Shown here: in pieces, positions 12,479-42,692 of the stretch
How positions within the stretch are numbered: the first letter of the stretch is position 1
Layout: each line of letters starts with the position of its first letter
IMG/VR virus record: IMGVR_UViG_3300048496_000015
Source of the DNA: a virus
Taxonomy: Duplodnaviria > Heunggongvirae > Uroviricota > Caudoviricetes
Direction: 5' to 3' (one strand)
Length of the DNA stretch: 60,844 nucleotides
Notes under the pieces: generated by a model
What the model was told of the DNA's origin: nothing
Database searches by the model: none
What the model saw: only the letters and a program-made list of their open reading frames with translations
Made by a program: the position numbers and the translations under genes

Positions 12479-12594
12479 ACTTCATAATTATTGGCCCCTG
12501 TATCATAAAACCCTTCCTGTCAGCGTTTTATAAGGGTAAGTTTATTGCTCATACCGAAGTCTTCATGAGAGGGGAGCTCAAGGGAGTATTATGA
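12475..12594 (+). CDS. MNF-family micro-protein (39 aa)
   Basis: MNFIIIGPCIIKPFLSAFYKGKFIAHTEVFMRGELKGVL; ATGA-coupled. Confidence 0.6.
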   Translation: MNFIIIGPCIIKPFLSAFYKGKFIAHTEVFMRGELKGVL

Positions 12595-12911
12595 ACTTCT
12601 TTGATATCTTGAGCGACTGGCTCGAAGAAGAGGGCTTCGAGGAAGAGGGCTTCCAACTTATAGTTGGGCCACCCAGCTTGGGCTCCAAAGAGAAGACGCA
12701 AATACTTGTTCATCGTTGCACTCATCCTTCTCAGTGGGGAATGTTCTTAGAGGAAGGACGTGCTGGGGTTGCTCTGGCCTGGAATTATGAGATCACTCGA
12801 GAGACACCAGATGACTTTGAGATCACTCCTCGCAAGATTCTACCCCTGTCCGATCCAAAATTCTTCTCTAAACTCAAAAGACGCCTCAACACTCACAAGT
12901 GTAAGTCATGA
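12591..12911 (+). CDS. ADPxFF-family paralog, dispersed copy
   Basis: 'FFDILSDWL' ... 'PLSDPKFFSKL' ... 'HKC'. Confidence 0.75.
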   Translation: MNFFDILSDWLEEEGFEEEGFQLIVGPPSLGSKEKTQILVHRCTHPSQWGMFLEEGRAGVALAWNYEITRETPDDFEITPRKILPLSDPKFFSKLKRRLNTHKCKS

Positions 12912-19504: not shown

Positions 19505-19521
19505 GTATACGGGGGAACTAT

Positions 19522-19553
19522 GGGGGAGGGGGGGGGCCCCGGGGGGGGAGGGG
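19522..19553 (+). other. G-tract (G5-A-G9-C4-G8-A-G4) at the GC-rich/AT-rich junction
   Basis: Read directly; composition switches abruptly to AT-rich after about 19560. Confidence 0.7.
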
Positions 19554-19621
19554 TTGTCGGGTCGATTTCTGACGAAAAATATGTTCCGTGTCAGCCTTTA
19601 ATATGTTAATGTATGGAGAAT

Positions 19622-19930
19622 TTATATCACAAGATTTAGACCGAGCCAATCGTCCATCTTATCAAAAAATTTAGGATCAGCTAGAAATACACGTAATTTA
19701 CTGGGGCCTGGATTTGTCATACTCATATCAACGATAATATGCCGCATTAACTCAACATGCTCAGGATAAACATAAATGCTGATAGCCTTAGGGTCGTTGA
19801 TACGAATTATACCCATAAGAGGACAAGACATGTCCATTTGGGCCGGATCTTCACAAGTTCGTATAGAAAGGTAGCCGCGATGCTCTTTGAGCCATTCGTG
19901 GATCAGTTCTAAAACGCTAGGTTCATGCAT
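19622..19930 (-). CDS. ADPxFF-family paralog
   Basis: VLELIHEWL / FLADPKFFDKM. Confidence 0.8.
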   Translation of the reverse strand: MHEPSVLELIHEWLKEHRGYLSIRTCEDPAQMDMSCPLMGIIRINDPKAISIYVYPEHVELMRHIIVDMSMTNPGPSKLRVFLADPKFFDKMDDWLGLNLVI

Positions 19931-20002
19931 ACGGGTCCTTCTGGGTCCTTGCTCTTGTCGATTTTGAATTCGTGAAAATTCATATGTTAGGCTTTAATAA
20001 GT

Positions 20003-20287
20003 TTATGTACAACGAGTTTGTTTATTTCGTTCATATCGAGTAGTGATAATGTCATGACATATTGCAAGATTGTTCATAAGCTTAGTAAGAAACTCAGGAT
20101 CGGAAGCGTGAATGATATCACCACAATGCCACGCAAATGCTCCGTCGTTAGAAATATATCCGACACTGCCAATACCTCGGCACTGACAAATTATAACATC
20201 TTTAAAATCATTGATTATTTGATAATGACCGCCACATATCTTGAAGTGGTCAGCAACGAGCATCGAGAGAGTGGGGAACTCGCTCAT
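20003..20287 (-). CDS. ADPxFF-family paralog (CxC+H type)
   Basis: LSMLVADHF / ICQCRG / HASDPEFLTKL..ICH. Confidence 0.8.
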   Translation of the reverse strand: MSEFPTLSMLVADHFKICGGHYQIINDFKDVIICQCRGIGSVGYISNDGAFAWHCGDIIHASDPEFLTKLMNNLAICHDIITTRYERNKQTRCT

Positions 20288-20574
20288 ACATCCGCTTCCG
20301 GCTGATCATGCCAATCTCTAATAGCATGCATCATTTCTGCGAAAAAAGTGGGGGAGGCTGCATAAATATTGACGCTATTAGAACCTCGTATATCTCGGTG
20401 ATTATAAACCCAAATAGCGACTCGATCTTTGTAGACAAACCCCAAATTGTAATCGCGACATCGACAACATATTGATATTGGATCAAGAGGGGCAGTTCGA
20501 ACACGATAATGAGGTTCGTATTCACTAAACCAATCCCCGAGAATTCGATAGAAAGGAGGAGGGAACTCGCTCAT
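20284..20574 (-). CDS. ADPxFF-family paralog (CxC+H type)
   Basis: YRILGDWF / ICCRCRD / YAASPTFFAEM..DWH. Confidence 0.8.
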   Translation of the reverse strand: MSEFPPPFYRILGDWFSEYEPHYRVRTAPLDPISICCRCRDYNLGFVYKDRVAIWVYNHRDIRGSNSVNIYAASPTFFAEMMHAIRDWHDQPEADV

Positions 20575-20906
20575 GGCATCACAATCTTGAAATTATTCAG
20601 GAGACGCTTATCTTTCGGATTGTTATTGAGATAGATTGCTGAATCATGACAAAGAGCGAGGCTCGTATCGAGCTTATCGAAGAACTCGGGATCTGCAGCA
20701 AGAATATAACCAGGATTCTCTGAGCCTACTGCAGATGCAACCAAAACACGATCTTTATTAATTTCAGCAAGTACTTCGATGCTCGGACACGCGCAAGTCA
20801 CATAATCCTCACCACCGTACTCTTCACCATCAACCATTATATGAAAATGAGACCGGCTCAGCCACCAATGTTCTTTGATTAGATCTTTAAGAGTGACGTC
20901 GTCCAT
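20571..20906 (-). CDS. ADPxFF-family paralog (CxC+H type)
   Basis: LKDLIKEHW / TCACPS / LAADPEFFDKL..LCH. Confidence 0.8.
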   Translation of the reverse strand: MDDVTLKDLIKEHWWLSRSHFHIMVDGEEYGGEDYVTCACPSIEVLAEINKDRVLVASAVGSENPGYILAADPEFFDKLDTSLALCHDSAIYLNNNPKDKRLLNNFKIVMP

Positions 20907-21222
20907 TTTCTTTCCTAAACTTATGATAATCGTTCATCGCATCAATCATGTCTTCAAAGAAGGTGGGGGACGCTGCGTAGACCGCACGCGGCCCAGGTTT
21001 TGTTTCTAGATTCGTATACTCGTCATTCCATTCTCTCGTATGGAGATAGCAAGCCATGTCTCGATCTTCGATCCAACCCATAGCCCAATCAACGTTGCTG
21101 CATTTACAGATAATTGAATTACTGTTTTGAACTACAAAATAATGTGTTGCATATTCATATAGCCAATCGTCAATGAGCTGGACGAGAAGAGGGATGCTTT
21201 TGTCTTCGACACTCTTGCTCAC
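20887..21222 (-). CDS. ADPxFF-family paralog (CxC+H type)
   Basis: LVQLIDDWL / ICKCSN / YAASPTFFEDM..DYH. Confidence 0.8.
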   Translation of the reverse strand: MSKSVEDKSIPLLVQLIDDWLYEYATHYFVVQNSNSIICKCSNVDWAMGWIEDRDMACYLHTREWNDEYTNLETKPGPRAVYAASPTFFEDMIDAMNDYHKFRKENGRRHS

Positions 21223-21521
21223 TGCATAGCGCCTGAACGATCTTTCTTAAGGGCAGCCGCGTGCGCGATTTTCAACGCTTCTTTGAATTTCTTAAAGAAG
21301 TTGGGGTCTGCGGCTTTGAGGGTAACAGCATTATCACGATTCATATCCTTGCCCCAAAGGAGCGCTGAATTTTTCTGCACATAACCCATATTGAAGCCGA
21401 GAATGCAAGGACAGTTAATTGAACCGTCTTCCCAGATGTTATAATGACGTTTAAGATTCGTCTTAAACCATTGCTGCATAAGTTCTTTGAAAGTAATTTT
21501 CTTATCCATCATTTCTTCCAA
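21219..21521 (-). CDS. ADPxFF-family paralog (CxC+H type)
   Basis: FKELMQQWF / NCPCIL / KAADPNFFKKF..IAH. Confidence 0.8.
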   Translation of the reverse strand: MEEMMDKKITFKELMQQWFKTNLKRHYNIWEDGSINCPCILGFNMGYVQKNSALLWGKDMNRDNAVTLKAADPNFFKKFKEALKIAHAAALKKDRSGAMQ

Positions 21522-21907
21522 GGAATATTGGGGAAATCTTTATCGGTAGGGCTAGGATTGCGATCACCAATTACACCGCCATTTGAAATCAATTCTTCAT
21601 GTTGCTTACCTCGCGCATGTTCAAATTTTCTCGCCCGCTCATGCCACACAATTATTGCTGATTTTAATTTCTGAAAGAAGAGGGGATCAGCTGGATTAAA
21701 TGAGTTGAAGGGAGGATTCTCTGTATCCATATTCGTCAATGATGTGTTCCAGATTATCACATCACTATTATTTCTATCACCAACCCAGCCCATATTCTTA
21801 CCACGAATACAATCGCAGACTATTTCACCATCTCTGATTACGCTGAAGTGGGACATATTCTCATAGAACCACTTCTTCATGATGTCTTGGAGGGAGAGTT
21901 CATTCAT
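21509..21907 (-). CDS. ADPxFF-family paralog (CxC+H type)
   Basis: LQDIMKKWF / VCDCIR / NPADPLFFQKL..VWH. Confidence 0.8.
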   Translation of the reverse strand: MNELSLQDIMKKWFYENMSHFSVIRDGEIVCDCIRGKNMGWVGDRNNSDVIIWNTSLTNMDTENPPFNSFNPADPLFFQKLKSAIIVWHERARKFEHARGKQHEELISNGGVIGDRNPSPTDKDFPNIPWKK

Positions 21908-22296
21908 CCTGACACCGACCTATATCGTCTTGTTCTAGTTTCGTCAATTTTCTTTCTAATAATCACGTGCCATTTCTCTAGCGCTGGAACTAGCTTGTCG
22001 AAGAAGAGGGGATCGCCCGCACTTAAGATTATTCGATTTTGCTTACCCGTGCTTATCAGCGCATTGTCTTTCCAGACAAGTATCCTGTCCTGGAACACCC
22101 ACCCCATATAGTAGATGCTGTCCACACATTCACACTTAACCGGAAGCCCTCCCTTAGTAGAGGCCCTGCTATAATCTACAAAATAGTGCTCCTGGTTCTC
22201 TGCAAACCAGTCATTCAACAAGTTGCTGAAGGAGGCTCCCTCCTCTCTACCGAGAGGTGGAACTGGCGCTTTGGTCATTAAACCGCACCTTTCCAT
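21904..22296 (-). CDS. ADPxFF-family paralog (CxC+H type)
   Basis: FSNLLNDWF / KCECVD / SAGDPLFFDKL..KWH. Confidence 0.8.
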   Translation of the reverse strand: MERCGLMTKAPVPPLGREEGASFSNLLNDWFAENQEHYFVDYSRASTKGGLPVKCECVDSIYYMGWVFQDRILVWKDNALISTGKQNRIILSAGDPLFFDKLVPALEKWHVIIRKKIDETRTRRYRSVSG

Positions 22297-22655
22297 CTAT
22301 ATCCCGCTATCTTATGCCATTCAACCAATGCTTGATACATCTTCTCAAAGAATTCAGGATCACTGGCACTTATCTTCTTTCCCTCGTCATCAGTCCTTCT
22401 TGAGGTCCATATAATCGCACAGTCGTCATGGATCCACCCCATATTATATCCTGCTGGACGTTCCCCGCTGCTCCCGTGTCCAACGCAGCGACAGAGCACA
22501 TGAGTGGCGAAGCCATCGCCTTGCCTATAAGTAGTTGCATTCTTAGTTTGGTAGGGAGCCAGGTAGAAGTGGGGATCTCGCCTGGCGAGAAAGTCACCAA
22601 CTAGGTCAGCTAGTAGAAGAGGGGACCCAGGAGTGCGCTTAATTTTAGCAGGCAT
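22278..22655 (-). CDS. ADPxFF-family paralog (CxC+H type)
   Basis: LADLVGDFL / LCRCVG / SASDPEFFEKM..EWH. Confidence 0.8.
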   Translation of the reverse strand: MPAKIKRTPGSPLLLADLVGDFLARRDPHFYLAPYQTKNATTYRQGDGFATHVLCRCVGHGSSGERPAGYNMGWIHDDCAIIWTSRRTDDEGKKISASDPEFFEKMYQALVEWHKIAGYRWKGAV

Positions 22656-22980
22656 TAATCATCTCGTGCCATTTCTTCATCGCTTGATAAAACTTCTCGA
22701 AGAACTCGGGGTCCTCTGGGTAAAAGGTCAACCCATCTCTAGCCACGTTGAGGGGGTTATTCCAGGTCACAACGTGGTCCTCGTAAATCAATCCCATGTT
22801 ATAAGTCAAGGAGAGGCACCCACAGATTATCTGGGAGAAAGGTTTCCCGTCATCAACTCCAGCACCAGTGTGCCAATGGTTTGGGGCGAAATGGGGGTCC
22901 CTCTCACCCAGCCATTCCCCGACAACGTCGATTAATCTAAGGGAGGACAGCTCGCGGGGTGGATTAGCTTGTTGTGCCAT
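22645..22980 (-). CDS. ADPxFF-family paralog (CxC+H type)
   Basis: LIDVVGEWL / ICGCLS / YPEDPEFFEKF..KWH. Confidence 0.8.
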   Translation of the reverse strand: MAQQANPPRELSSLRLIDVVGEWLGERDPHFAPNHWHTGAGVDDGKPFSQIICGCLSLTYNMGLIYEDHVVTWNNPLNVARDGLTFYPEDPEFFEKFYQAMKKWHEMINAC

Positions 22981-23330
22981 AAAACCAACTGACTCCGCAA
23001 CTTGGGGAAGAAGTCGGGGTCCCCCGCTTTAAATACAACACTATCTGGGAATATTGGGAATCCCTCTCCATCAAAGTGCCTGACTCCAACCCAGACCTCA
23101 TCTTCCTTAGTGAGAGATTGGTTCCCAATGTAACCAACAATAATTCCATCATTCCGTTGAGGGGGACAATACTTGTCCTTAGGGGCACAAGTAAAGGTGA
23201 TGACCGAGGAACGCACCCCTACTCGGAGATGCTTGCCAAGTGGGGAGGCCTCCTTGCTGCGCAACCAGTTCTTGACTATCAAAGTGAGAGAGGGGGACCA
23301 CTGGGTTCCAGGATTAGTGGAGCGGGCCAT
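22932..23330 (-). CDS. ADPxFF-family paralog
   Basis: LTLIVKNWL / TCAPKDKYC / KAGDPDFFPKL..LWH. Confidence 0.8.
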   Translation of the reverse strand: MARSTNPGTQWSPSLTLIVKNWLRSKEASPLGKHLRVGVRSSVITFTCAPKDKYCPPQRNDGIIVGYIGNQSLTKEDEVWVGVRHFDGEGFPIFPDSVVFKAGDPDFFPKLRSQLVLWHNKLIHPASCPPLD

Positions 23331-23676
23331 TTTTACACCTCAATGTCTTAGCCAACAACATATCCCGTAACTTGTTAAAGAAGAGGGGGTCCGAAGGGTG
23401 GAGCTCATAATATGGACGATAGGAAAAACTTATATCCCGATATATCTCTCCGTTTGACCAGATCATAACATGGTCTTGATACGCGGTTCCAACCAAGTTT
23501 GGAACAGGACAACAACATCTGAAGTCGACAATATGAGTCCCACTTCCGTCAGACCTTATCCCATCGATAGGGCTTTCCTGGAACCAGTCATATACTAGCT
23601 CAGGAAGAGTAGGATTAGTTTCGTCTACCATAACATTCTTTACGGCTTCTTTCCAAAGCCTTTGTAAGCTTCTCAA
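23314..23676 (-). CDS. ADPxFF-family paralog (Cys-terminal type)
   Basis: LPELVYDWF / RCCCPV / HPSDPLFFNKL..RC; true start probably internal. Confidence 0.8.
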   Translation of the reverse strand: MRSLQRLWKEAVKNVMVDETNPTLPELVYDWFQESPIDGIRSDGSGTHIVDFRCCCPVPNLVGTAYQDHVMIWSNGEIYRDISFSYRPYYELHPSDPLFFNKLRDMLLAKTLRCKNGPLH

Positions 23677-23947
23677 AGAAGTCCGGATCCTCTGGATGGA
23701 GAGTTTCTGAATAACGGCTTGCTATCCTAGCCCTTGTCCAGACATCCACTCTATCACTATAGATAGAAGCTAAAACACAAGTAGGTTGACAGTAGTCACA
23801 CCTGAAAACAGGTGGCCAACCTCTAAGATCCCTAAACAGACGAACTCCCAAAACACGAACGCGGCGGTCCTTCCACCACTCATGGATTAGATCTAAGAGA
23901 TCAGGTTCGTTATATAATTCCTTATCCACAACATCTCTTTCGTTCAC
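23615..23947 (-). CDS. ADPxFF-family paralog (Cys-terminal type)
   Basis: LLDLIHEWW / RCDYCQ / HPEDPDFFEKL..EC. Confidence 0.8.
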   Translation of the reverse strand: MNERDVVDKELYNEPDLLDLIHEWWKDRRVRVLGVRLFRDLRGWPPVFRCDYCQPTCVLASIYSDRVDVWTRARIASRYSETLHPEDPDFFEKLTKALERSRKECYGRRN

Positions 23948-24221
23948 GGAGAAGTATCCTCTCGAGTTTAGTAAAGAAACGCGGGTCCTCCGCCCTGAGA
24001 ACTGTATTGGTAGTCTTGCCAGTATAATGCTGATCCCAGACTTCTATATTGTCATCGTTGACATCGGCAAGTATGCCGTATTTAGGACAACCATTACATC
24101 TGAAACCCATCGAACTAAAGAATGCTACTCCAGAATAATTAACCTGTTCTCTAAATGATATAGGTGTATTCTGAAACCAGTCAAGCAATATATCTGAAAG
24201 TTTAATCACGGTCCACAACAC
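23922..24221 (-). CDS. ADPxFF-family paralog (Cys-terminal type)
   Basis: LSDILLDWF / RCNGCP / RAEDPRFFTKL..RCC. Confidence 0.8.
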   Translation of the reverse strand: MLWTVIKLSDILLDWFQNTPISFREQVNYSGVAFFSSMGFRCNGCPKYGILADVNDDNIEVWDQHYTGKTTNTVLRAEDPRFFTKLERILLRERKRCCG

Positions 24222-24508
24222 TGCTTCTGTTTGTTAAGTAGCGCGTCTGTTAGATTATCTAGAAACTTAGGATCTGCAATATTAAGAATCTCGGTAGAAG
24301 AACCGGACGAAGTAGTCCCATCGTGATCAATTACTACGCAGTCTTCTTTAATCCAAGCCAATTTGGTTGATCTATTACAGTTACAGGTAAATCCTGGGGT
24401 ATAGTATACGTAGCGAACCTTCTCCCTAAACCAACGTGGCGTCTGCTCGACCCACCAGTCCATCAGTAGTTCTGAGAGTCTAACGTTTATTTCGGACATT
24501 TCGGGCAC
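24206..24508 (-). CDS. ADPxFF-family paralog (Cys-terminal type)
   Basis: LSELLMDWW / TCNCNR / NIADPKFLDNL..QCC. Confidence 0.8.
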   Translation of the reverse strand: MPEMSEINVRLSELLMDWWVEQTPRWFREKVRYVYYTPGFTCNCNRSTKLAWIKEDCVVIDHDGTTSSGSSTEILNIADPKFLDNLTDALLNKQKQCCGP

Positions 24509-25119
24509 CGTTGTTTAAGTAATGTCTCCTGTAGATTCTTGAAGAAGTCGGGCTTGGCGGAATCGTGTACAACGCCCATTGGCCTTCCATCCGGGTTAAC
24601 GACTCCAGCCCTATCCCAAACAATTACATGATCATCGTTGACTGTAGCAATCCAAATGGGCGGACTACATCCACAAGCAATTCCAGCAGCGTACGAGACA
24701 CTGGTTGAAGTATGAAAAACAACTCTCTTTTTAAAAGATTTAGATCTTTTGAGCCACCAATCAAATACTATATGCGATAAACTAATACCGTTGTTCAAGC
24801 AGCATTCTCGAACAGTACGATACAGACCTTCAACCATTTTCTTGAAGAGTTCGGGTTCCGAAGGATTGTAATCCTTACGTTCAAAATTCTGAAGATCATG
24901 TTTCTTCGGTGCCCAAATAGTTACAACATCGTCTACCTCATCATATACTTCAGCTTCCCAGAGGCTAATAACCCAGGTCTTTTTTCGACATTTACACTCA
25001 AACCCCGGACACTTGTTGCTATCGCGTGGTTTATATTGGAATAGGTGATGGAGATGGGATTGTGTGCCCCACCATTCGAGCATCAGATCGTGGAATTTAA
25101 TAGACAAATCGTTGTTCAT
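24487..25119 (-). CDS. ADPxFF-family two-domain fusion
   Basis: Domain 1 FHDLMLEWW / ECKCRK / NPSEPELFKKM..ECC; domain 2 LSHIVFDWW / ACGCSP / DSAKPDFFKNL..RCPKC. Confidence 0.8.
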   Translation of the reverse strand: MNNDLSIKFHDLMLEWWGTQSHLHHLFQYKPRDSNKCPGFECKCRKKTWVISLWEAEVYDEVDDVVTIWAPKKHDLQNFERKDYNPSEPELFKKMVEGLYRTVRECCLNNGISLSHIVFDWWLKRSKSFKKRVVFHTSTSVSYAAGIACGCSPPIWIATVNDDHVIVWDRAGVVNPDGRPMGVVHDSAKPDFFKNLQETLLKQRCPKCPK

Positions 25120-25429
25120 GGCGACAATTACGACGTTGTTCTAACATCGCATCAACGAGCTGCTCAAAAAAAGCAGGATGAGAAGGATAATAACTAGTAC
25201 GGGTACAATTTACACCTTTCTGCGGACCCCAGACAACAGCACGATCATCACAGATAGTAACGATCCAGTAAGCCCCGCAATTGCAGCGAATGCCAGGCTG
25301 AAACTTCCCATCACCCGAAACATATTCGAAGAGATCTTGGAGAGAATGTCTTTCTTGCCACCAATCTCGCATTATAATCCTAAAATCGGGAGTTATGTGC
25401 GACGATGGATTAGAGCCTGTTGTCATCAT
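25097..25429 (-). CDS. ADPxFF-family paralog (Cys-terminal type)
   Basis: FRIIMRDWW / RCNCGA / YPSHPAFFEQL..NCRH. Confidence 0.8.
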   Translation of the reverse strand: MMTTGSNPSSHITPDFRIIMRDWWQERHSLQDLFEYVSGDGKFQPGIRCNCGAYWIVTICDDRAVVWGPQKGVNCTRTSYYPSHPAFFEQLVDAMLEQRRNCRHEQRFVY

Positions 25430-25760
25430 AATCAGTCACCGGTGGTAATCCCCTTATCTGCCTGATTCCAATATGTGAACAACTGGCAAGACAAATATTG
25501 ATATGCATCTCAAGCTCACTAAACATTTCAGGATCGTAAGCTGGAATTTCAGACATTCTCTCATCACGCGGCGGTGTCCAACCTCTAACTGTTAATTTCT
25601 TATTGTTAATCATAGCGATCCAGATCGAACAACATCTACATGATATTACCCATTCATGTTCTACTTCTTGCATTGGCTCAACGTAGAGCTTCTCGTACAA
25701 CCATGGCTTGGTTACTAACCATCGCTCTACTGCCATCGATAATGTTATATCATTCATCAT
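25410..25760 (-). CDS. ADPxFF-family paralog (Cys-terminal type)
   Basis: LSMAVERWL / SCRCCS / PAYDPEMFSEL..SCSH. Confidence 0.8.
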   Translation of the reverse strand: MMNDITLSMAVERWLVTKPWLYEKLYVEPMQEVEHEWVISCRCCSIWIAMINNKKLTVRGWTPPRDERMSEIPAYDPEMFSELEMHINICLASCSHIGIRQIRGLPPVTDYDDNRL

Positions 25761-26052
25761 GTGCGCTCACATGAACAAAGATTGCGTGTTCGAGCTTACC
25801 GAAGAGATTAGGATCGGAAGCTGTGATTGTCCGTATGCCATCATCAGTATCCATAGCAACTTCCGCGTCTTCATTACTAACGAGGATAATATAATTATTG
25901 CAAGTGCTGCATCTAATAACATGATGGTGAGTTTCGTATATCATCATAGGTAGCACTCCTCGAGTCCCAATAAAAACTCTCTCGTTGAGCGCTTCGTGGC
26001 AATCTAACCACTTCTCTAGAAGTTCAGACAGCGTTACTTGATCAGTGGCCAT
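25750..26052 (-). CDS. ADPxFF-family paralog
   Basis: LSELLEKWL / RCSTCN / TASDPNLFGKL..H. Confidence 0.8.
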   Translation of the reverse strand: MATDQVTLSELLEKWLDCHEALNERVFIGTRGVLPMMIYETHHHVIRCSTCNNYIILVSNEDAEVAMDTDDGIRTITASDPNLFGKLEHAIFVHVSAHDE

Positions 26053-26098
26053 ATTAGATAAACAACCATACCTATAAAAGCGATCCAGACGATCACCT

Positions 26099-26473
26099 CT
26101 ATTGTTCGTCCGATTGTTTCGACTTTATCTCCCACGGCTTCTCCCTAGTATAGTGTCCCCTATCTCCCCCACAATGCGCCTGCTCTTCAATTAGAACCTT
26201 CTTCAATTTCTCAAAGAAATCTGGATCTGAGGCTTTAATATAATCTTTCGGACGCCAGCGAGTTGCCTCTATATCAGATGTGGTTGTCCAACCATGATTC
26301 CAACCAACCTGGTCTTCCCCGATAATAATTAACCATCTACTACAACCACAAGCAATACCATATTTGGCCCATGCCATCTCTGGCGAAGAAACTGCCATAA
26401 ACCTCTCTGCGAGGTCTGGATCTTTATTAATCCAATCGAATACTAATTCGTGAAGTTCAACGGTGTCGCCCAT
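26099..26473 (-). CDS. ADPxFF-family paralog (Cys-terminal type)
   Basis: LHELVFDWI / ACGCSR / KASDPDFFEKL..HC. Confidence 0.8.
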   Translation of the reverse strand: MGDTVELHELVFDWINKDPDLAERFMAVSSPEMAWAKYGIACGCSRWLIIIGEDQVGWNHGWTTTSDIEATRWRPKDYIKASDPDFFEKLKKVLIEEQAHCGGDRGHYTREKPWEIKSKQSDEQ

Positions 26474-26751
26474 AGTCTCTTATCTCTATGAATGCCTTCA
26501 ATACGAGCTATCAGATATCTTTCGAACTTACTAAAGAATTCGGGATCAGCGGCCCGTAAAACATACAGCCCTTCATCAAGATCAGCAAATCCAATAAAGT
26601 AAACAGAATCTTCACGAATACGGGCGAACGATGATCTTGTCTCCCGATCATAGATGTCATATGATGAAGCCGCTGTTCCAATGGTGTATCTCGCGGGAAA
26701 TTTTGGTTCCATCCAGTCCTTGATTATCTGTCTAAGATTTAAAGCGTCCAT
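26443..26751 (-). CDS. ADPxFF-family paralog (no Cys pair)
   Basis: LRQIIKDWM / RAADPEFFSKF. Confidence 0.8.
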   Translation of the reverse strand: MDALNLRQIIKDWMEPKFPARYTIGTAASSYDIYDRETRSSFARIREDSVYFIGFADLDEGLYVLRAADPEFFSKFERYLIARIEGIHRDKRLWATPLNFTN

Positions 26752-27080
26752 GTCTTACCGTAACAATGTTGTGGTGGCAATCTTAATGACCTGTCGTTTA
26801 AATAATCTTTTAACTTCTCAAAGAAGTTCGGATTTGCAGCCCGCAGTGTTAACTTATCACCACTGAGCAGCTGCACTAACAAGTTGTCTTCCCAGATTGC
26901 CGCCGGATAACTCTCTGTAATCTTATCGAATAAACCATATTCACTAAATGGCCCGATAAATATACTCACTGCTCGTTTCACTTCATATCGTCCGTGAAAC
27001 TTCTCTGCGACGAGCCAATCAGCTATTATTGTAGTGAGCTTCAGAATATCACCTGATCTCGAGCAACAATCTCTTCCCAA
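26739..27080 (-). CDS. ADPxFF-family paralog (no core Cys pair)
   Basis: LTTIIADWL / RAANPNFFEKL. Confidence 0.8.
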   Translation of the reverse strand: MGRDCCSRSGDILKLTTIIADWLVAEKFHGRYEVKRAVSIFIGPFSEYGLFDKITESYPAAIWEDNLLVQLLSGDKLTLRAANPNFFEKLKDYLNDRSLRLPPQHCYGKTWTL

Positions 27081-27367
27081 GTTGGTTCTGCCAACATGAC
27101 AGCTTTAACTTTCTTAAAGTATTCAGGATCAGCAGGATTAAGTTCTTCTTTAGTTATTCGAGATATCTTAAGATTACCTTCAAAGTCAATTGTGGCATTG
27201 GGCAAATCCCGATGCTGCTTGGGTGTGAGATGCCGTTTGGGTGTAATGAACCATGTATAGAGCGGATTATCTATAATAGTGTTCTCTTTAATGTCGTAGA
27301 GCTCTTTCATTACTGGATCTGTCTTAAACCACTCTACCATTATATGACCAAGATTGATCTTTTCCAT
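27041..27367 (-). CDS. ADPxFF-family paralog (no Cys pair)
   Basis: LGHIMVEWF / NPADPEYFKKV. Confidence 0.8.
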   Translation of the reverse strand: MEKINLGHIMVEWFKTDPVMKELYDIKENTIIDNPLYTWFITPKRHLTPKQHRDLPNATIDFEGNLKISRITKEELNPADPEYFKKVKAVMLAEPTWEEIVARDQVIF

Positions 27368-27419
27368 ATGTTATTGTATAATAGAATAATTATATAGATA
27401 TCTAATACCGAAGTTCGCG

Positions 27420-27734
27420 CTACGACGAGACGTGCGGAGTACGTTGTTCAAAATGATTTCTCCGCCAGGTCAGATACTTTTCTAATTTCGGGAAGAATTC
27501 AGGATCGGCAGCCCAAAAGGTAATTTCCTTATGGCCGTGTCGGTGTGCTATTTCTACCCTATCTGGAGAAATCAAGCCTATTTCAAAAGCCCAAGATGAT
27601 TCTCTAACATCAGCAATGGTATTACGACCATTCTTGGCTTTAATGACTCCGTAGAACCTAGGGAATAGGTTGAAATGTGCATTACGAAGCCAGTATTCAA
27701 CAAGTTGTGTTAGGGTGAGATTAGGATCGGTCAC
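27420..27734 (-). CDS. ADPxFF-family paralog (no Cys pair)
   Basis: LTQLVEYWL / WAADPEFFPKL. Confidence 0.8.
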   Translation of the reverse strand: MTDPNLTLTQLVEYWLRNAHFNLFPRFYGVIKAKNGRNTIADVRESSWAFEIGLISPDRVEIAHRHGHKEITFWAADPEFFPKLEKYLTWRRNHFEQRTPHVSS

Positions 27735-28081
27735 TTTTCCTCTACTACTTCCTTAATCAGGAATGTACTCACTAACGAATCAAGTTCTTTACGTCTTGCG
27801 GCCAGCTTTTCTGCTGACACCTTCTTATCCATTCCTGCTAACATTCTACGATAATGACGATGCGACAAAAATGAATCGGCGAGTTTTTCAAACATCTTTG
27901 GATCAGCGGCTTGCATTATAGCAGGTCCTTCCGGCGTTATAACCTTAACCAAATCGCCTCTGATCAAGCCTGCGATATGTGGTGCACTATCATTGAACAT
28001 AATAGTACCAGCAATGACTTTAAAATCTTTAAATTCTTCCTGCTCACTGACCCAGGTTTCAACAAAATTTTCCAATTCCAT
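27731..28081 (-). CDS. ADPxFF-family paralog (no Cys pair)
   Basis: LENFVETWV / QAADPKMFEKL. Confidence 0.8.
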   Translation of the reverse strand: MELENFVETWVSEQEEFKDFKVIAGTIMFNDSAPHIAGLIRGDLVKVITPEGPAIMQAADPKMFEKLADSFLSHRHYRRMLAGMDKKVSAEKLAARRKELDSLVSTFLIKEVVEEK

Positions 28082-28187
28082 AACTCTTGTCTATCCTATT
28101 TGTAGATTTTCATAATCATTGACAATAAATTATTAGATAATGGGATAATTATATCTAGTTCTCATATCGCGTAACGCGCGCGGCGCG

Positions 28188-28580
28188 TTATTTTAGTATT
28201 ACCGGACACTGCTTACCGTCATCATGGGACCAATTATGAGAAGACACAAGTGCTTTCCTCAATTTCTTGAAGAACTCAGGATCAGTGGCTTTTAAAGCAC
28301 GCCAATCACCGTATCTCTTTAACCATTTAGTATAAGGGCCCTCTCCTCCATAATCTGCGTCTCTCTGGATAACTGGTCTAATCTCAACACCATCTTCTTT
28401 GATCCAACCGAGAATATTAATGACCGGCCCACCACTAGTACAGAATGTGACAATAGTTGGAGTACTACCGTCTTCGACATTGAAATCTAGACTGTTATCC
28501 CAAACCCTTAAATGTTCTTTTAAAACTGGACTGCGATCTATCCAATCTTTTATGATTGTTGTTAGTTTAATCATTTCCAA
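28188..28580 (-). CDS. ADPxFF-family paralog
   Basis: LTTIIKDWI / KATDPEFFKKL..SHNWSH. Confidence 0.8.
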   Translation of the reverse strand: MEMIKLTTIIKDWIDRSPVLKEHLRVWDNSLDFNVEDGSTPTIVTFCTSGGPVINILGWIKEDGVEIRPVIQRDADYGGEGPYTKWLKRYGDWRALKATDPEFFKKLRKALVSSHNWSHDDGKQCPVILK

Positions 28581-28855
28581 TCATAATGTCTAAAGGACTT
28601 TAATAATTCGATTTTTATCTTCCTAAAGAAATCAGGATCTGCTGCCTCCATCTTACATGAGCGAGGCTCCAGGAATTCTACATAAGTGTCATATACTTTC
28701 GCTTGCATATATCCTAAAGCTCCACACTCACATTCTATTGTATAATTCGGCATATTCCCCCACATAATCAATTTAAAATGGTTCTTGAAAGCAGAGTCTT
28801 TAAGCCAATCGGATATGGCCTTAGAGAGGTGCACTAGTCCTCTCCGGTTATCCAA
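28571..28855 (-). CDS. ADPxFF-family paralog (CxC+H type)
   Basis: LSKAISDWL / IECECGA / EAADPDFFRKI..RH. Confidence 0.8.
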   Translation of the reverse strand: MDNRRGLVHLSKAISDWLKDSAFKNHFKLIMWGNMPNYTIECECGALGYMQAKVYDTYVEFLEPRSCKMEAADPDFFRKIKIELLKSFRHYDWK

Positions 28856-29199
28856 TCATAATCCTCGATCATATCACCCCAACTTTCGCGAATAATGTAC
28901 ATGTCTACCCCTATGGGGTACCATGCAGAGCCTTGAAGCTTGGGTATATGTCTTCGGAAGGTTAGTGCTCTCCCATTCTTTGTCTGTAAAGCCCAAAAAC
29001 CTTTATCGTAGGAGAGTTGCTCTGGTGATATATCAACAGGAAGAAAGATATTAACTCTCTTCCAATCGGTTGCGTATTGACTCGGGATGCTTTCATAATC
29101 TAGGATTACAAATGCTTCCCGGCTTGTAGTCTTAACAGCGCCTTTCAAGATGGGCGTCGGGTTGCTAAAGGCATCATCGAGCTCATGCTCGAATACCAT
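28834..29199 (-). CDS. Hypothetical protein (not an array member)
   Basis: 121-aa ORF lacking both family motifs. Confidence 0.65.
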   Translation of the reverse strand: MVFEHELDDAFSNPTPILKGAVKTTSREAFVILDYESIPSQYATDWKRVNIFLPVDISPEQLSYDKGFWALQTKNGRALTFRRHIPKLQGSAWYPIGVDMYIIRESWGDMIEDYDWITGED

Positions 29200-29344
29200 A
29201 GATTCATCCTAAATAGTAGTTTGGAATAATTCGGACAGAATAGTCCTTTAGATGTTCAGGAGTGCCCTACACAGTAAGGTTCTCATAAGGTATATTTATT
29301 CTGCAAAGCTTCATCCAAAATGATTCGGAAAAATCCAGAGGTGG

Positions 29345-29575
29345 TCATTCTGGCCTCCACATACCTTGCCAAAAATCTACAACCTTATCAATTTTCTTAC
29401 CCCAACGTTTCTTAAGCTTTTTCTCTTTACGCTCCCAGTCGTATTTCCTACCAACCTGCGTAATTTCGACGTCCGGGTAGAGACAAAGTAAGAAAGTAGT
29501 ACCTATAAGTATCACCGACATAAAGAAAACAGAAAGTCGAAACCACGGGAACCAAAACTTACCTTCTCTTACCAT
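29345..29575 (-). CDS. Small membrane protein
   Basis: Hydrophobic stretch LSVFFMSVILIGTTFLLCLY followed by a basic tail. Confidence 0.65.
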   Translation of the reverse strand: MVREGKFWFPWFRLSVFFMSVILIGTTFLLCLYPDVEITQVGRKYDWERKEKKLKKRWGKKIDKVVDFWQGMWRPE

Positions 29576-29903
29576 TATACAAGCAGAAGAATGGTTCTAA
29601 ATGCTTTGCTATTTCTTCAAAAGAGTCAGGCTTAGATAAGTCTATACGAGGCATTTCACCGTTCTCATCGAGAGTTCGCACTATAACAGCATTTGAGCCT
29701 TCAAATGCCAATATTTCCATTTGACATGCACGTGTTATATCATCTTTAGGCACTGCGCGGGTATATTCTAAACATAAGACTACACGATCGGGATCCTCAG
29801 CTGCAATTGATAAATAAACATTATCGGGGTCAGCAAACACGTAGTGTTCATTTAACCATGTCCCGATTATTTCCGGTAGGTGTTTTTCTATTGGATTTTC
29901 CAT
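29559..29903 (-). CDS. ADPxFF-family paralog (divergent)
   Basis: LPEIIGTWL / DLSKPDSFEEI. Confidence 0.7.
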   Translation of the reverse strand: MENPIEKHLPEIIGTWLNEHYVFADPDNVYLSIAAEDPDRVVLCLEYTRAVPKDDITRACQMEILAFEGSNAVIVRTLDENGEMPRIDLSKPDSFEEIAKHLEPFFCLYNGKRR

Positions 29904-30207
29904 TCTTCTTATTTAGATGGAAACGCCTACGCGACTTTTGTTGCCGCTTATTCTTCCGTCGCTGTTTTATATCTTCTTGATGTTCTTGATTGTGTTTACG
30001 TAATTTAGCTTTAATCTCTTCTGACATCGGTTTGGAAACGCCAAGAAGTTTTCGGATTATTAAATTCGCTTTATGGTCGCTACCTTCTTCTCGAGCCTCA
30101 ACAACTTTAACCCACGGATCTGCAGCTCTGCATTCGGGAGATTTCCAATGACCGAATAATTCACCAACATTTTTGGTGCGAAACTTCATGCAACGCCCGC
30201 AGATCAT
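29848..30207 (-). CDS. Hypothetical protein, N-terminal C2H/C Zn finger and basic tail
   Basis: CGRC...HWKSPEC; K/R-rich C-terminus. Confidence 0.65.
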   Translation of the reverse strand: MICGRCMKFRTKNVGELFGHWKSPECRAADPWVKVVEAREEGSDHKANLIIRKLLGVSKPMSEEIKAKLRKHNQEHQEDIKQRRKNKRQQKSRRRFHLNKKNGKSNRKTPTGNNRDMVK

Positions 30208-30485
30208 AAAAATTTCTTCTTAACGTAGCTTATAGATTGTTCAATCTTATCAAACAACTTCGGGTCAGTCGCATCAACTGATAACGGTCCATCCTCATGT
30301 TCTAATACTATCCAATGATCCCCTACCATTCCAAAATAATGGTCCCATTTATGATCGTATCGCTTAAGAGTGATTCCCAATTGATAATGGCCTGAACGGC
30401 GTGTCAAGAGTAATTCGCTGGAAGATTTAGTTCCCATCCAGACGGTTAGTAATCGATAAAGTGTAAGTTGCGTATCATTAATCAT
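30204..30485 (-). CDS. ADPxFF-family paralog
   Basis: LYRLLTVWM / DATDPKLFDKI. Confidence 0.75.
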   Translation of the reverse strand: MINDTQLTLYRLLTVWMGTKSSSELLLTRRSGHYQLGITLKRYDHKWDHYFGMVGDHWIVLEHEDGPLSVDATDPKLFDKIEQSISYVKKKFL

Positions 30486-30727
30486 CAGAATTTCTTTATG
30501 GATTCTTTAAGAAGAGCAAAAAAATCAGGGTTATCGGCATACAAAATCCGCTGTCCAGACTCATTTTCATATTTGAAATCAACGTGATTATCAATGACCC
30601 ATCCAATCCAAGTGCCTTCAATCCACATAGCTACAAGTTTTGACTCTTTAATGGGTGTGAAGATTAAGGTTGGATATTCATCTTTGGCCCAATCTCGAAT
30701 GAGTTGCCAGAGCTCCACTTTACTCAC
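30485..30727 (-). CDS. ADPxFF-family paralog (minimal, 80 aa)
   Basis: LWQLIRDWA / YADNPDFFALL. Confidence 0.75.
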   Translation of the reverse strand: MSKVELWQLIRDWAKDEYPTLIFTPIKESKLVAMWIEGTWIGWVIDNHVDFKYENESGQRILYADNPDFFALLKESIKKF

Positions 30728-31099
30728 TCACTTATCTACTGGGTCCTTCCTAGCGTCGAATGTCCAATGTTCTTTATTCTTGGCTTGATACCAATTTGTA
30801 TGCCTGAAGAGCGCATGTGTTAGACCTTGTTCGAGTTGTTCAAAGAATTTTGGATCAGCAGCTTGGATCTTTCGTTTGTTGTTTGTGTCATAGATGAATT
30901 CTATATTGTCATTATTAATTGCAGCAATGCGGCCATCCATATAACGGTCTTCAAACTTTACATCCCCAGTGGCGAAACGAGCGATATACTCCATAGTTGG
31001 TCTGATATGGCATAGACTTACTTCGACAATAGCCCAGTTATTTCGGGACAACCATTCCTGGACTATTTCTACTAGCGTTACGTTCATTGTTTTTAACAT
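30728..31099 (-). CDS. ADPxFF-family paralog
   Basis: LVEIVQEWL / QAADPKFFEQL. Confidence 0.8.
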   Translation of the reverse strand: MLKTMNVTLVEIVQEWLSRNNWAIVEVSLCHIRPTMEYIARFATGDVKFEDRYMDGRIAAINNDNIEFIYDTNNKRKIQAADPKFFEQLEQGLTHALFRHTNWYQAKNKEHWTFDARKDPVDK

Positions 31100-31850
31100 A
31101 AGAGATTAGGTTCTTAAGAAATTTGCTATAATCATCTCCCGCAGGTAGATTCTCGTCGGTTAGCAATCTGCGACGAATGGTCTTAACAGTCTTTTGAGTG
31201 ATTGGGTTATAGCCCTCATGCTCACGGTTTCCCCAATACATTGCCGTGCCATTCTTTTGCCATTTTGGGAGTTTGTCGTATTCAATACCATGCTCATCAA
31301 GTATAGCTAACTTCTCGGTATTAGTCCTGTTCTTCATATTAGAAGTCGCAGTCCTAGCAGATAAGTCTTTTCCGCGTAGTGTCCAATAACACCAGCTATT
31401 CAATGCGCACCGCTGAGCATCTGCTTGTCTCCATCTGAAATAGTCGATGACATTGAGACTACGAAGACCAACCCAGACTCGGCTATCAAAGTTTCCCTCT
31501 ATATCAGTAGCTTTAGTGAAAGCAGCACTAGCAATGCCAGCTGAAACAGAGACTGTTTTTTCAGCTCTACGATTGAACATATCCCAACTACGGGGGAACA
31601 AGATAGAGATTTCATCACTCTCAGTGTATGCATAAGCGCCCCCTAATTGCTCCATCAGGGCAGTAGTGGCAGTCAGCATATGATGATGAAGAGTGACATC
31701 GAATGGCTTCATGTAGTGTTTTTCTGTCAGCGCTGAGAAGCTTCTTCCGTCTATCCTCAAGATTATCCAAGTTTCAGGTGCAATCTTGGTACGACTGAAG
31801 ACTTCCATTTTCTTCATTTGTTCGGACAGATCATCGAATTTCATCACCAT
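31038..31850 (-). CDS. thg1: tRNA(His) guanylyltransferase / Thg1-like 3'-5' polymerase
   Basis: 'ILRIDGRSFS', 'KPFD', 'YTESDEISILF', 'FDSRV', 'YFRWRQADA'. Confidence 0.93.
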   Translation of the reverse strand: MVMKFDDLSEQMKKMEVFSRTKIAPETWIILRIDGRSFSALTEKHYMKPFDVTLHHHMLTATTALMEQLGGAYAYTESDEISILFPRSWDMFNRRAEKTVSVSAGIASAAFTKATDIEGNFDSRVWVGLRSLNVIDYFRWRQADAQRCALNSWCYWTLRGKDLSARTATSNMKNRTNTEKLAILDEHGIEYDKLPKWQKNGTAMYWGNREHEGYNPITQKTVKTIRRRLLTDENLPAGDDYSKFLKNLISYVKNNERNASRNSPGMVVPK

Positions 31851-32421
31851 TCTCCAGGTAGTTTCGAATCTTCATAAAGATTTCTGCTTGTTCTATAGCA
31901 TCATCTAATGCATTATGTGTATGCGGTTTCTTCGAGAGAAATCGCTTCTCCATATTACGCTTTGTTGTATCCGACCACCTTTTTTTTCGCAAGGCCCCCA
32001 TATAGTACGCTTTGATATCTAGCCCAGAAATGCCAAATGGGTTATTTCCTATAAAGTGGTGGAAATACCAACTTACCCACGACCAATCGAACGATGCGTT
32101 AAATGCAACAAGTACAGGACGACTATTGTCTTTATTAGAAACAGTGCCGAGCCAGGACGAAAAGTTATACATCGCTGTTTTCGGGTCTTGACCCTTGGCA
32201 ATCAAGTAATCTCGTTCTAATCCCGACACAGCTAAAGCTCTGGGGTCCCATTTATCACTAATAGGTTTAAGCTCAGCGTAGTAATTGCGGCCAGGATCAT
32301 CCGCTACACAAGCCCCAACAGAGGCCATAGAATAATCACCAGGTATCTGGCCATCCGCCTCTATATCAACTGAAATCCAAACATCATTACGCATATACCA
32401 TACCTCACCTCTAAAATACAT
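31831..32421 (-). CDS. DEDDh 3'-5' exonuclease
   Basis: 'ISVDIEADG', 'AFNASFDW', 'HTHNALDDAIEQA'. Confidence 0.9.
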   Translation of the reverse strand: MYFRGEVWYMRNDVWISVDIEADGQIPGDYSMASVGACVADDPGRNYYAELKPISDKWDPRALAVSGLERDYLIAKGQDPKTAMYNFSSWLGTVSNKDNSRPVLVAFNASFDWSWVSWYFHHFIGNNPFGISGLDIKAYYMGALRKKRWSDTTKRNMEKRFLSKKPHTHNALDDAIEQAEIFMKIRNYLENGDEIR

Positions 32422-41789: not shown

Positions 41790-42692
41790 ATGAGAGAAGT
41801 TACCCCTCCCAGGGCCGATGTCGGTGTAATTGTTGGTCGATTCCAGGTCCACGAGCTCCATCAGGCACACCTCGATCTGATCTCGTTTGTTCGTAAGCGG
41901 CATGACCGCACCCTAATCTTCTTAGGATTATCACCATGCCGCGTAACGACGAATAATCCTCTCGATTTCGACGCCCGGAAGCAGATGCTCCAGGATGCTT
42001 TCCCCGACGTAGGGATTTATTATATTAAGGACTGCAACGACGATTCATTATGGTCTAAGCGACTTGATGGAATGATTACGGATCACTCCAAACCTGGTGC
42101 TAAAGTAATGCTTTACGGCGGTCGCGATGCTTTCATTAAGCATTATGATGGCAGGCATCCTGCCACTGAGTTAAAACAAGAAACATTTATGTCCGGTTCC
42201 GAAGTACGCAAGAGTATTAGTAACAAAGTTAAGGGCACCCCTGACTTCCGCGCTGGTGTTATTTGGGCCTCTCAGAATCAGTATCCAAAGGCCATTCCAA
42301 CTGTGGATATTGCGATATGGGATGATAAGAAGAAAATGCTCCTTATGGCTCGCAAGGAAGAGGAGCAGTTGTATAGATTCGTTGGAGGTTTCGCAACTGG
42401 GCCGACTTTCGAAGCTGATGCACGTCGCGAGGTTGAGGAAGAAACTGGGATTGATATTACTGATCCTGAATACGTTGGCTCTCGTCAGGTTGATGATTGG
42501 CGTTATCGCAGTGAAATTGACAAGATTGTGACTATCTTGTTTGAAGCAAAACATTTTAGTGGTAGGCCACGCCCAATGGATGATATCGTTGAACTGAAGT
42601 GGTTTCAGTTCAGCACCCTCAAGGACAAGGACCTTGTCCCTGAACATAGAGAACTCCTAAAGATGCTACGATGCAAAAAGGAGAACCGATGA
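41790..42692 (+). CDS. nadM: Bifunctional NMN adenylyltransferase / Nudix hydrolase (NadM-Nudix, NatV-like)
   Basis: 'GRFQVHELHQAH', 'NNPLDFDARKQM', Nudix box 'GGF...EADARREVEEETG'. Confidence 0.92.
   Translation: MREVTPPRADVGVIVGRFQVHELHQAHLDLISFVRKRHDRTLIFLGLSPCRVTTNNPLDFDARKQMLQDAFPDVGIYYIKDCNDDSLWSKRLDGMITDHSKPGAKVMLYGGRDAFIKHYDGRHPATELKQETFMSGSEVRKSISNKVKGTPDFRAGVIWASQNQYPKAIPTVDIAIWDDKKKMLLMARKEEEQLYRFVGGFATGPTFEADARREVEEETGIDITDPEYVGSRQVDDWRYRSEIDKIVTILFEAKHFSGRPRPMDDIVELKWFQFSTLKDKDLVPEHRELLKMLRCKKENR

Follow-up and report, generated by a model that had tools for sequence, protein, structure and literature searches.

The window, a stretch of phage DNA of 60,844 nucleotides (IMG/VR record IMGVR_UViG_3300048496_000015, Caudoviricetes), contains a tandem array of one undescribed protein family at positions 19622-31099. 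The array consists of 31 minus-strand genes arranged head-to-tail and encoding 32 domains, and all 31 genes are intact. The proteins are 80-132 amino acids long with one exception, a 210 amino acid two-domain protein at 24487-25119. The array is tentatively read here as a diversified panel of small cytoplasmic binding modules, each for a different macromolecule and most plausibly for host proteins; we give this reading somewhat less than an even chance.

The gene count and protein sizes given in an earlier, sequence-only reading of this DNA are reproduced by the listing of open reading frames (ORFs), with 27 consecutive minus-strand ORFs at 19622-28855 and four more at 29559, 30204, 30485 and 30728. 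That these genes are paralogues of one family, as was also proposed there, is borne out by leave-one-out (LOO) profile searches. Each of the 32 domains is recognised by a hidden Markov model (HMM) of the other 31, with E values between 2e-19 and 1.5e-6 for all but the weakest one (29559-29903, 9.5e-4). Pairwise identity among the domains is 21% on average and 37.5% at most. The three motifs of the earlier reading are present in the 32-domain alignment: an N-terminal helix L-x-x-[LI]-[IV]-x-[DE]-W, a hairpin [GA]-x-I-x-x-D-x-V and the block A-x-D-P-x-F-F-x-K-L. A relaxed regular expression for the C-terminal motif gives about 30 minus-strand matches between 20087 and 30862, and only degenerate chance matches in the rest of the 60.8-kb window. 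A 33rd family domain, absent from the training set, is found outside the interval on the opposite strand (12591-12911, HMM E 2.6e-9). This copy lies isolated among micro-genes whose products start with M-N-F and itself starts M-N-F-F-D-I-L, so that two families meet in one gene.

With the longest-ORF starts, the family genes leave no gap at approximately 25 of their 30 junctions, where they overlap or directly adjoin the gene upstream (in several cases through ATGA); the remaining five are gaps of 46-145 nt. This close packing agrees with the translational coupling described earlier. The 27-gene run is also as described. As a correction to the earlier reading, the array is interrupted by three ORFs without a match to the family HMM (28834-29199, 29345-29575 and 29848-30207). 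Four consecutive array genes (21904-23330, minus strand) have a GC content of 47-51% compared to 38-44% in the rest of the array.

Searches of Pfam, PHROGs and NCBIfam with the 32 domains gave no family match, only three isolated rows at chance level; 31 of the 32 domains had no match in PHROGs, and a profile search of PDB sequences with the family was empty. The family had been called unrecognised, and in these four collections no described family corresponds to it. The two-domain member (P0001) gave nothing at E<=0.01 in a tblastn search of 50,697 phage records. In the same records there is no DNA nearly identical to the window, and the DNA polymerase of the window has only distant relatives. 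A profile search of 1.84 billion cluster representatives identified 488 proteins at E<=1e-3. The family alignment and all column statistics are based on 150 of these 488, those that were listed; among the 150, all are 54-222 amino acids long, 24 come from the window and 126 from elsewhere. A word-index homologue search with the family profile returned five proteins, the index being unsuited to such divergence.

The contexts that were recovered are almost all tandem arrays of 3-24 copies in T4-like jumbo-phage contigs. L001 (ENA, 3.3 kb) has 11 copies that are collinear with the window genes 24490 down to 19625 at 30-59% identity. The contig L004/L022 (IMG/VR, 122.8 kb, CheckV 34% complete) has at least 22 copies, in an array that starts right after a Thg1 gene. 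L005 (10 kb) has nine copies behind RNase T-like and AAA genes, L006 (7.7 kb) has 13, L015 (IMG/VR, 43-kb contig) has 24 copies in 11.5 kb, and L016 (IMG/VR) has three beside T4 gp19, baseplate and primase genes. Only L002 (6.3 kb) departs from this pattern, with two separated copies, of which one immediately follows an RNA ligase gene. A contig of 384,188 bp on record carries one of the array proteins. Between an epimerase gene and Thg1, L004 also encodes a 239 amino acid protein with two Cys/His-rich HNH-like repeats (6040-6759, plus strand) that has no counterpart there in the window. A DNA scan with the motif pattern A-x-D-P-x-F-F-x-K-L-x3-L in one genome per prokaryote species gave at least 120 single-hit loci with no convincing member among them. 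The best of these hits (L110, L112 and L075) fall in the antisense frame of a small gene that follows an RNase R gene. The IMG name of the homologue P0033, aspartate carbamoyltransferase regulatory subunit, has no Pfam support whatsoever and was rejected. As far as tested, the family appears to occur only in one clade of T4-like jumbo phages, all uncultivated, in which it is usually arrayed.

Two AlphaFold2 models were obtained, each from a family alignment of about 150 rows. The first, of the Cys-containing protein 24206-24508, has a mean predicted local distance difference test score (pLDDT) of 87.4 and a predicted template modelling score (pTM) of 0.76, and consists of a helix (8-19), a short helix (22-27), five strands and a C-terminal helix (79-95). 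The second, of the Cys-free 80 amino acid protein 30485-30727 (pLDDT 91.1), has the same elements in identical order. The family domain is accordingly modelled as, and expected to be, a two-layer sandwich with the N- and C-terminal helices packed on one face of a five-stranded sheet. The A-x-D-P-x-F-F motif, which had been placed at the end of the protein, is present, but in the models it caps the C-terminal helix, forming the N-cap and first turns of a helix of 17 residues. A complex prediction of the two halves of the 210 amino acid protein against each other, run without controls, scored 0.00.

An exhaustive VIA structure search, with a stated noise bar of Z 8, returned the same top families for both models. 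These are the Med17 C-terminal domain (Z 5.9 for the first model and 7.3 for the second), CyaY/frataxin (Z 5.8 with 4hs5_A, 89 residues aligned, root mean square deviation (rmsd) 3.6, and Z 6.6, 74 aligned, rmsd 2.9, both below the bar), the TriTu immunity protein (5.4 and 6.7) and VP1028, YjbR and DUF419 (4.5-6.5). Within the YjbR/MmcQ (DUF419) and YdhG-like group the values are 4.5/6.5 for 2fki, 4.8/5.6 for 2a1v and 5.1/5.6 for 9t2w. Further matches are YdhG-like proteins, the C-terminal domain of T4 MotA (Z 5.4) and type III secretion chaperones (Z 4-5). Because all Z values are below 8, the matches are read as a common helix-sheet-helix sandwich arrangement in the models and not as homology. 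The domains of the family have no match to Frataxin (PF01491; 32 domains, hmmscan of Pfam-A, E<=0.1), nor in Pfam to YjbR/MmcQ DUF419 (PF04237) or the YdhG-like families. An ESM Atlas feature search gave no usable match, and weak rows in AFDB and the Atlas were seen only for YdhG, DUF5655 and TfoX_N. The modelled order of helix, five-stranded sheet and helix is that of frataxin/CyaY, YjbR/DUF419/YdhG/TfoX-N, TriTu, Med17C and the class I type III secretion chaperones. To our knowledge, none of these families has the A-x-D-P-x-F-F cap or the H/CxC/H tetrad described below. The lack of a shared fold had been named beforehand as a refuting outcome; two divergent members give the same element order and the same list of matches, and the divergent members are therefore predicted to share one fold.

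The conserved positions of the helices in the 150-sequence alignment are L8, L/I11, I/V12, W15, L16, F79, F80, L83 and L87, and from helix periodicity they are expected on the face that packs against the sheet. Also conserved are hydrophobic strand positions, four ligand positions, the beta-turn Asp 53 and Asp-Pro 76-77, the latter read as the helix cap. K82 is the sole well-conserved charged residue of the helices, while positions 10, 14 and 18 of helix 1, solvent-facing by periodicity, are merely biased towards acidic residues. Since the conserved helix positions face the sheet and the rest are ligands, the turn Asp and the cap, the conservation is accounted for by the scaffold, and the shared docking surface postulated in the sequence-only reading is not needed to explain it. 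The hypervariable core of that reading is found, with the variation concentrated in three loops of 0-29 (between strands 1 and 2), 5-30 (strands 2 and 3) and 6-38 residues (strands 4 and 5). The turn between strands 3 and 4 hardly varies in length (median 4 residues), and strand 5 lies at an invariant distance from Asp-Pro. The isoelectric point (pI) is 4.6-9.5 with a median of 6.2 and the net charge reaches -11. All proteins are hydrophilic overall, with a negative grand average of hydropathy, and no signal or transmembrane segments were predicted from the sequences of the array members.

The four ligand positions were overlooked when the motifs were first listed. In the numbering of the 24206-24508 protein they are His 27 at the start of strand 1 (90 of 150 sequences), Cys 39 (87) and Cys 41 (117) at and just after the end of strand 2, and His or Cys at 91 in the C-terminal helix (106). 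The full H-C-C-H set is present in 47 of the 150 sequences and at least three ligands in about 100. The ligands do not co-occur at random (Fisher p 4e-7 and 7e-6, uncorrected for shared ancestry). This set of His, Cys-x-Cys and His or Cys, found in about two thirds of the copies, most likely binds a structural zinc, judging from the sequence pattern. An antiparallel hairpin of strands 1 and 2 would bring the start of strand 1 beside the end of strand 2, and the four ligands could then plausibly meet in space, given the strand pairing and helix position of the models. The ligand sets define three subtypes that occur in blocks along the array. H/CxC/H is found in most genes at 20003-23676 and also at 28571-28855. 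The block at 23615-26473 is without His 27 and combines CxC with a C-terminal CC, CxxC or CxH that is located about a helical turn further on, and the genes at 26443-28081 and 30204-30727 have no or few ligands. The tetrad, the acidic bias of helix 1 at the periodically solvent-facing positions 10, 14 and 18, and CyaY/frataxin among the top structural matches (Z 5.8-6.6) would suit a role in metal handling, as frataxin/CyaY-like iron or zinc chaperones or as metal sponges. This is very improbable, as PF01491 is not matched, the tetrad looks structural (one helix residue plus residues at strand ends), a third of the members are without it, and metal handling would not explain why there are 31 divergent copies.

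In a tree of 89 domains the copies of the window do not form a single clade but interleave with copies from L001, L002, L004, L005 and L006, from which it follows that most duplications probably predate the divergence of these phages. Compared to the window, L001 has kept the gene order, but fewer genes separate its orthologues of 24490 and 22935. Compared to L004, the flanking genes are 33-59% identical (Thg1 47%) and the first two positional orthologues of the array 27-28%, while most other array copies are without a clear one-to-one partner. In the columns that vary between paralogues, identity is 30% in window-L001 orthologue pairs versus 8% in paralogue pairs. Taken together with the ratios of nonsynonymous to synonymous substitution (dN/dS) given below, the tree, the column identities and the comparison with the flanks indicate that the paralogues are long-lived, individually maintained and evolving faster than their neighbours. 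A fast, arms-race turnover is only partly seen: the array does diverge more than its flanks, but most paralogues appear older than the split of the phages and dN/dS is below 1. The same data bear on the idea that the copies are functionless filler, with tandem duplication merely enlarging the genome to fill a larger capsid, and expansion of jumbo-phage genomes by duplication has been proposed (PMC5646251; PMC13282480). All copies are however intact although they are only about 21% identical, the 150 sequences have conserved scaffold residues, distinct phages share paralogue lineages and dN/dS is below 1 where computable. Filler was already disfavoured and is the least probable of the alternatives.

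Table 1. Positions of the array genes, interrupting ORFs, upstream neighbours and outlying copy in the window, in order of transcription for the minus strand (id, identity; AF2, AlphaFold2)
Feature	Position	Strand	Evidence and relations
RNase T / Rv2179c-like exonuclease gene, probable first gene of minus-strand unit	31831..32421	-	
Thg1-like tRNA-His guanylyltransferase gene, directly upstream of array	31038..31850	-	PF04446 E 2.8e-29, PF14413 E 6e-12; same Thg1-then-array order in L004
Family member 1, first transcribed, overlaps Thg1 end	30728..31099	-	LOO E 2.3e-13; positional orthologue L004 8711-9007, 28% id
Family member, 80 aa, minimal form, no Cys/His ligands	30485..30727	-	LOO E 4.9e-9; AF2 pLDDT 91.1
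Family member, ligand-free	30204..30485	-	LOO E 2e-7; orthologue L004 9011-9274, 27% id
Non-family ORF, Cys-rich N-terminus (C-x-x-C ... H-x5-C), very basic tail	29848..30207	-	No family HMM or Pfam match; same position in L004 9317-9637, 44% id
Family member, most divergent	29559..29903	-	LOO E 9.5e-4; full HMM E 4.5e-13
Non-family ORF, 76 aa, hydrophobic segment	29345..29575	-	No family HMM match
Non-family ORF, 121 aa	28834..29199	-	No family HMM match
Family member, H/CxC/H (HCCH)	28571..28855	-	LOO E 1.1e-12
Family member, partial ligand set (H.CH)	28188..28580	-	LOO E 1.8e-16
Family member, no CxC, long C-terminal tail	27731..28081	-	LOO E 5.4e-8
Family member, no CxC	27420..27734	-	LOO E 5e-12
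Family member, ligand-free	27041..27367	-	LOO E 1.5e-6
Family member, no CxC	26739..27080	-	LOO E 6e-11
Family member, no CxC	26443..26751	-	LOO E 5.4e-11
Family member, CxC + C-terminal His/Cys	26099..26473	-	LOO E 5.9e-17
Family member, CxC + C-terminal His	25750..26052	-	LOO E 1.8e-14
Family member, CxC + C-terminal Cys/His	25410..25760	-	LOO E 2.1e-14
Family member, CxC + C-terminal C-x-H	25097..25429	-	LOO E 2.4e-19
Two-domain fusion member, CxC + CC / CxxC	24487..25119	-	Two HMM stretches, E 2.6e-45 overall; halves LOO E 2.2e-14, 2.7e-17
Family member, CxC + C-terminal CC, modelled	24206..24508	-	LOO E 3.6e-19; AF2 pLDDT 87.4, pTM 0.76
Family member, Cys pair + C-terminal CC	23922..24221	-	LOO E 1e-18
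Family member, Cys pair + C-terminal Cys	23615..23947	-	LOO E 1e-17
Family member	23314..23676	-	LOO E 1.2e-14; orthologue L001 702-1118, 47% id
Family member, H/CxC/H	22932..23330	-	LOO E 2.4e-10; orthologue L001 1084-1476, 59% id
Family member, H/CxC/H	22645..22980	-	LOO E 7.2e-18
Family member, H/CxC/H	22278..22655	-	LOO E 5.7e-16
Family member, H/CxC/H	21904..22296	-	LOO E 4.7e-18
Family member, H/CxC/H	21509..21907	-	LOO E 3.7e-18; orthologue L001 2055-2402, 42% id
Family member, H/CxC/H	21219..21521	-	LOO E 4.4e-19
Family member, H/CxC/H	20887..21222	-	LOO E 9e-13; orthologue L001 2359-2715, 47% id
Family member, H/CxC/H	20571..20906	-	LOO E 3.8e-16; 99%-identical protein P0018 in another sample
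Family member, H/CxC/H	20284..20574	-	LOO E 2e-17
Family member, H/CxC/H, N-helix Trp replaced	20003..20287	-	LOO E 1.4e-9
Family member, last of array, atypical middle	19622..19930	-	LOO E 4.8e-7; orthologue L001 3022-3327, 47% id
Outlying family member, starts M-N-F, in MNF micro-gene cluster	12591..12911	+	HMM E 2.6e-9

Upstream of the Thg1 and RNase T genes the window encodes nicotinamide phosphoribosyltransferase (NAMPT), a NUDIX protein, glycosyltransferases, a 5'-3' exonuclease, gp32, a family A DNA polymerase and a DnaB-type helicase. The array is on the same strand as the upstream replication genes (gp32, DNA polymerase and helicase). From this shared strand and the overlapping stops and starts it follows that the array genes are probably made together, co-expressed inside the infected cell from a long minus-strand unit starting at the exonuclease and Thg1 genes. 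An AT-rich motif, ATAATTATyCyATTAT, is common to two of the five array gaps (27378-27393 and 28137-28152, minus strand) and has six matches in the window at up to two mismatches, versus 0.7 expected. A perfect GC-rich palindrome (28167-28191) opens one of these two gaps. Motif and palindrome may represent an internal promoter and a hairpin. After the last gene of the array there is a long tract rich in C/G homopolymers (approximately 19505-19570), and the GC content of the window shifts from 52-61% in the first 20 kb to about 41-44% from the array onward. The protein with a C-terminal NUDIX domain (41790-42692, plus strand) adjoins the NAMPT gene (42671-44086, plus strand), a pair that we take to resemble the NadV/NatV NAD-salvage pair of large phages, itself linked to the countering of NAD-depleting defences.

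The position of the array also bears on whether its products are virion-associated or packaged proteins, i.e. decoration, internal-head or ejected proteins. Many small proteins are packaged by jumbo phages, and the outlying 12591 copy starts with M-N-F like the leader of the micro-gene products around it. That leader is however missing from the 31 array members, which have no signal or transmembrane segments, and the array lies apart from structural genes and is co-directional with the replication genes; packaging is improbable. A role as nucleic-acid-binding regulators, with the open sheet face binding DNA or RNA in the manner of the MotA C-terminal domain or of YjbR/MmcQ and the paralogues differing in the sequence or RNA recognised, has the MotA C-terminal domain (Z 5.4), YjbR (6.5) and DUF419 (5.6) among the structural matches. 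The neighbours of the array act on tRNA or RNA, and zinc sites are common in nucleic-acid binders. We consider it distinctly unlikely, in view of the median pI of 6.2 with many strongly acidic members, the lack of a conserved basic patch, structural matches below the noise bar and the unusual occurrence of 31 regulators in one operon.

The panel of small binding modules is pictured as follows. An ancient family of small, soluble, cytoplasmic proteins has been multiplied by tandem duplication, and its copies would be built on one rigid and often zinc-stabilised scaffold while differing in three loops and in charge. The copies would be made together in the infected cell, behind the exonuclease and Thg1 genes, and each would recognise a different macromolecule. 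Targets in the host would imply a function in host take-over, counter-defence or neutralisation of toxins. The early-gene clusters of T4-like phages, like the multigene families of other viruses, make host proteins the most plausible targets by analogy, and the RNA-repair-type neighbours make neutralisation of RNA-targeting host effectors an attractive sub-hypothesis.

Several observations weigh against this reading. The earlier suggestion of anti-defence proteins or signal sponges finds no similarity to any PHROG or Pfam family to lean on, and no known anti-defence, immunity or host take-over protein was matched in Pfam, PHROGs, NCBIfam or the PDB profile search, which are general libraries and none of them dedicated to anti-defence. 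No match at E<=0.001 came from Foldseek searches of the models in PDB, AFDB clusters or BFVD (E values above 0.1), and every VIA match of both models is below the noise bar of Z 8. Helix periodicity, by which burial was judged, gave no evidence of a conserved exposed patch. There is no sign of positive selection: by the method of Nei and Gojobori (NG86), dN/dS is 0.23-0.65 in five of seven window-L001 orthologue pairs and not computable in two, and as dS is saturated (0.8-2.1 or not computable) these values are only a crude indication of a ratio (omega) below 1. The case for zinc binding is drawn from the sequence pattern, and about 10% of the family members are without all four ligands yet model confidently. 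Scans for sites resembling sigma-70-type promoters and terminators gave no more than the shuffled expectation.

The array could further be a repertoire of zinc-stabilised mini-binders with three hypervariable loops on one rigid scaffold, expanded by some 30-45 duplications and long retained in a clade of jumbo phages, with each copy neutralising a different host defence effector or toxin. Such a 'poly-immunity' or counter-defence library would be without a described precedent in bacteriophages; this further step is doubtful. Bacterial polyimmunity loci, reportedly described by Zhang and colleagues in 2011, are said to be tandem arrays of divergent small immunity paralogues. The layout here is the same as in such loci (SUKH, Imm), with 31 tandem divergent small paralogues in the window and 3-24 in most related contigs. 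As a sub-case of the binder reading, the array could then be a viral poly-immunity locus of immunity- or antitoxin-like copies, each neutralising a different host toxin or abortive-infection effector such as RNA/tRNA-targeting nucleases. Both models have the TriTu immunity protein among their best structural matches (Z 5.4 and 6.7), although in the noise range, and the array lies directly behind tRNA/RNA-repair-type genes (Thg1 and RNase T-like), as one copy in L002 lies behind an RNA ligase gene. Unlike in polyimmunity loci there is no sequence match to an immunity family (SUKH or Imm in Pfam) and no toxin gene or domain among the neighbours, and the at least 120 candidate loci from cellular genomes, in which immunity families are normally present as well, yielded no homologue. 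Such a locus is unlikely.

Tandem arrays of more than 30 similar genes are known from the jumbo phages G and 121Q (Hua et al. 2017, PMC5646251; restated in a 2026 review, PMC13282480). The array described here resembles them in consisting of about 30 head-to-tail small paralogues, attributed to tandem duplication, in a very large phage genome. It differs in that the two-domain member has no tblastn match among the 50,697 phage records, i.e. in cultured phages, and in that the copies are about 21% identical and not very similar genes. It differs also in that the family has a predicted fold and a candidate zinc site of its own and is seen only in uncultivated phages. The phenomenon of arrays in jumbo phages is thus already known, while this family is undescribed. 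The parallel drawn earlier with the multigene families of large DNA viruses is fair as an analogy. The African swine fever virus families MGF110/360/505, the poxvirus host-range families and the herpesvirus US22/SUKH families are likewise clustered divergent paralogues on one scaffold, and they bind different host targets. There is no sequence or significant structural relationship to these families of eukaryotic viruses, and the array here is internal to the window, beside RNA-repair-type and replication genes.

Tandem multigene arrays fill several percent of some jumbo-phage genomes, and none has an assigned function. The present family offers experimental handles in its small domain (80-130 amino acids), a confident model, a likely zinc site, natural ligand-free variants and orthologous arrays in several phages. 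If the copies prove to be something other than binders, the role of one large array would still be settled. If each of them turns out to bind its own target among the host proteins, the array would amount to a catalogue of the vulnerabilities or defences of a poorly studied group of hosts, as well as a natural binder scaffold.

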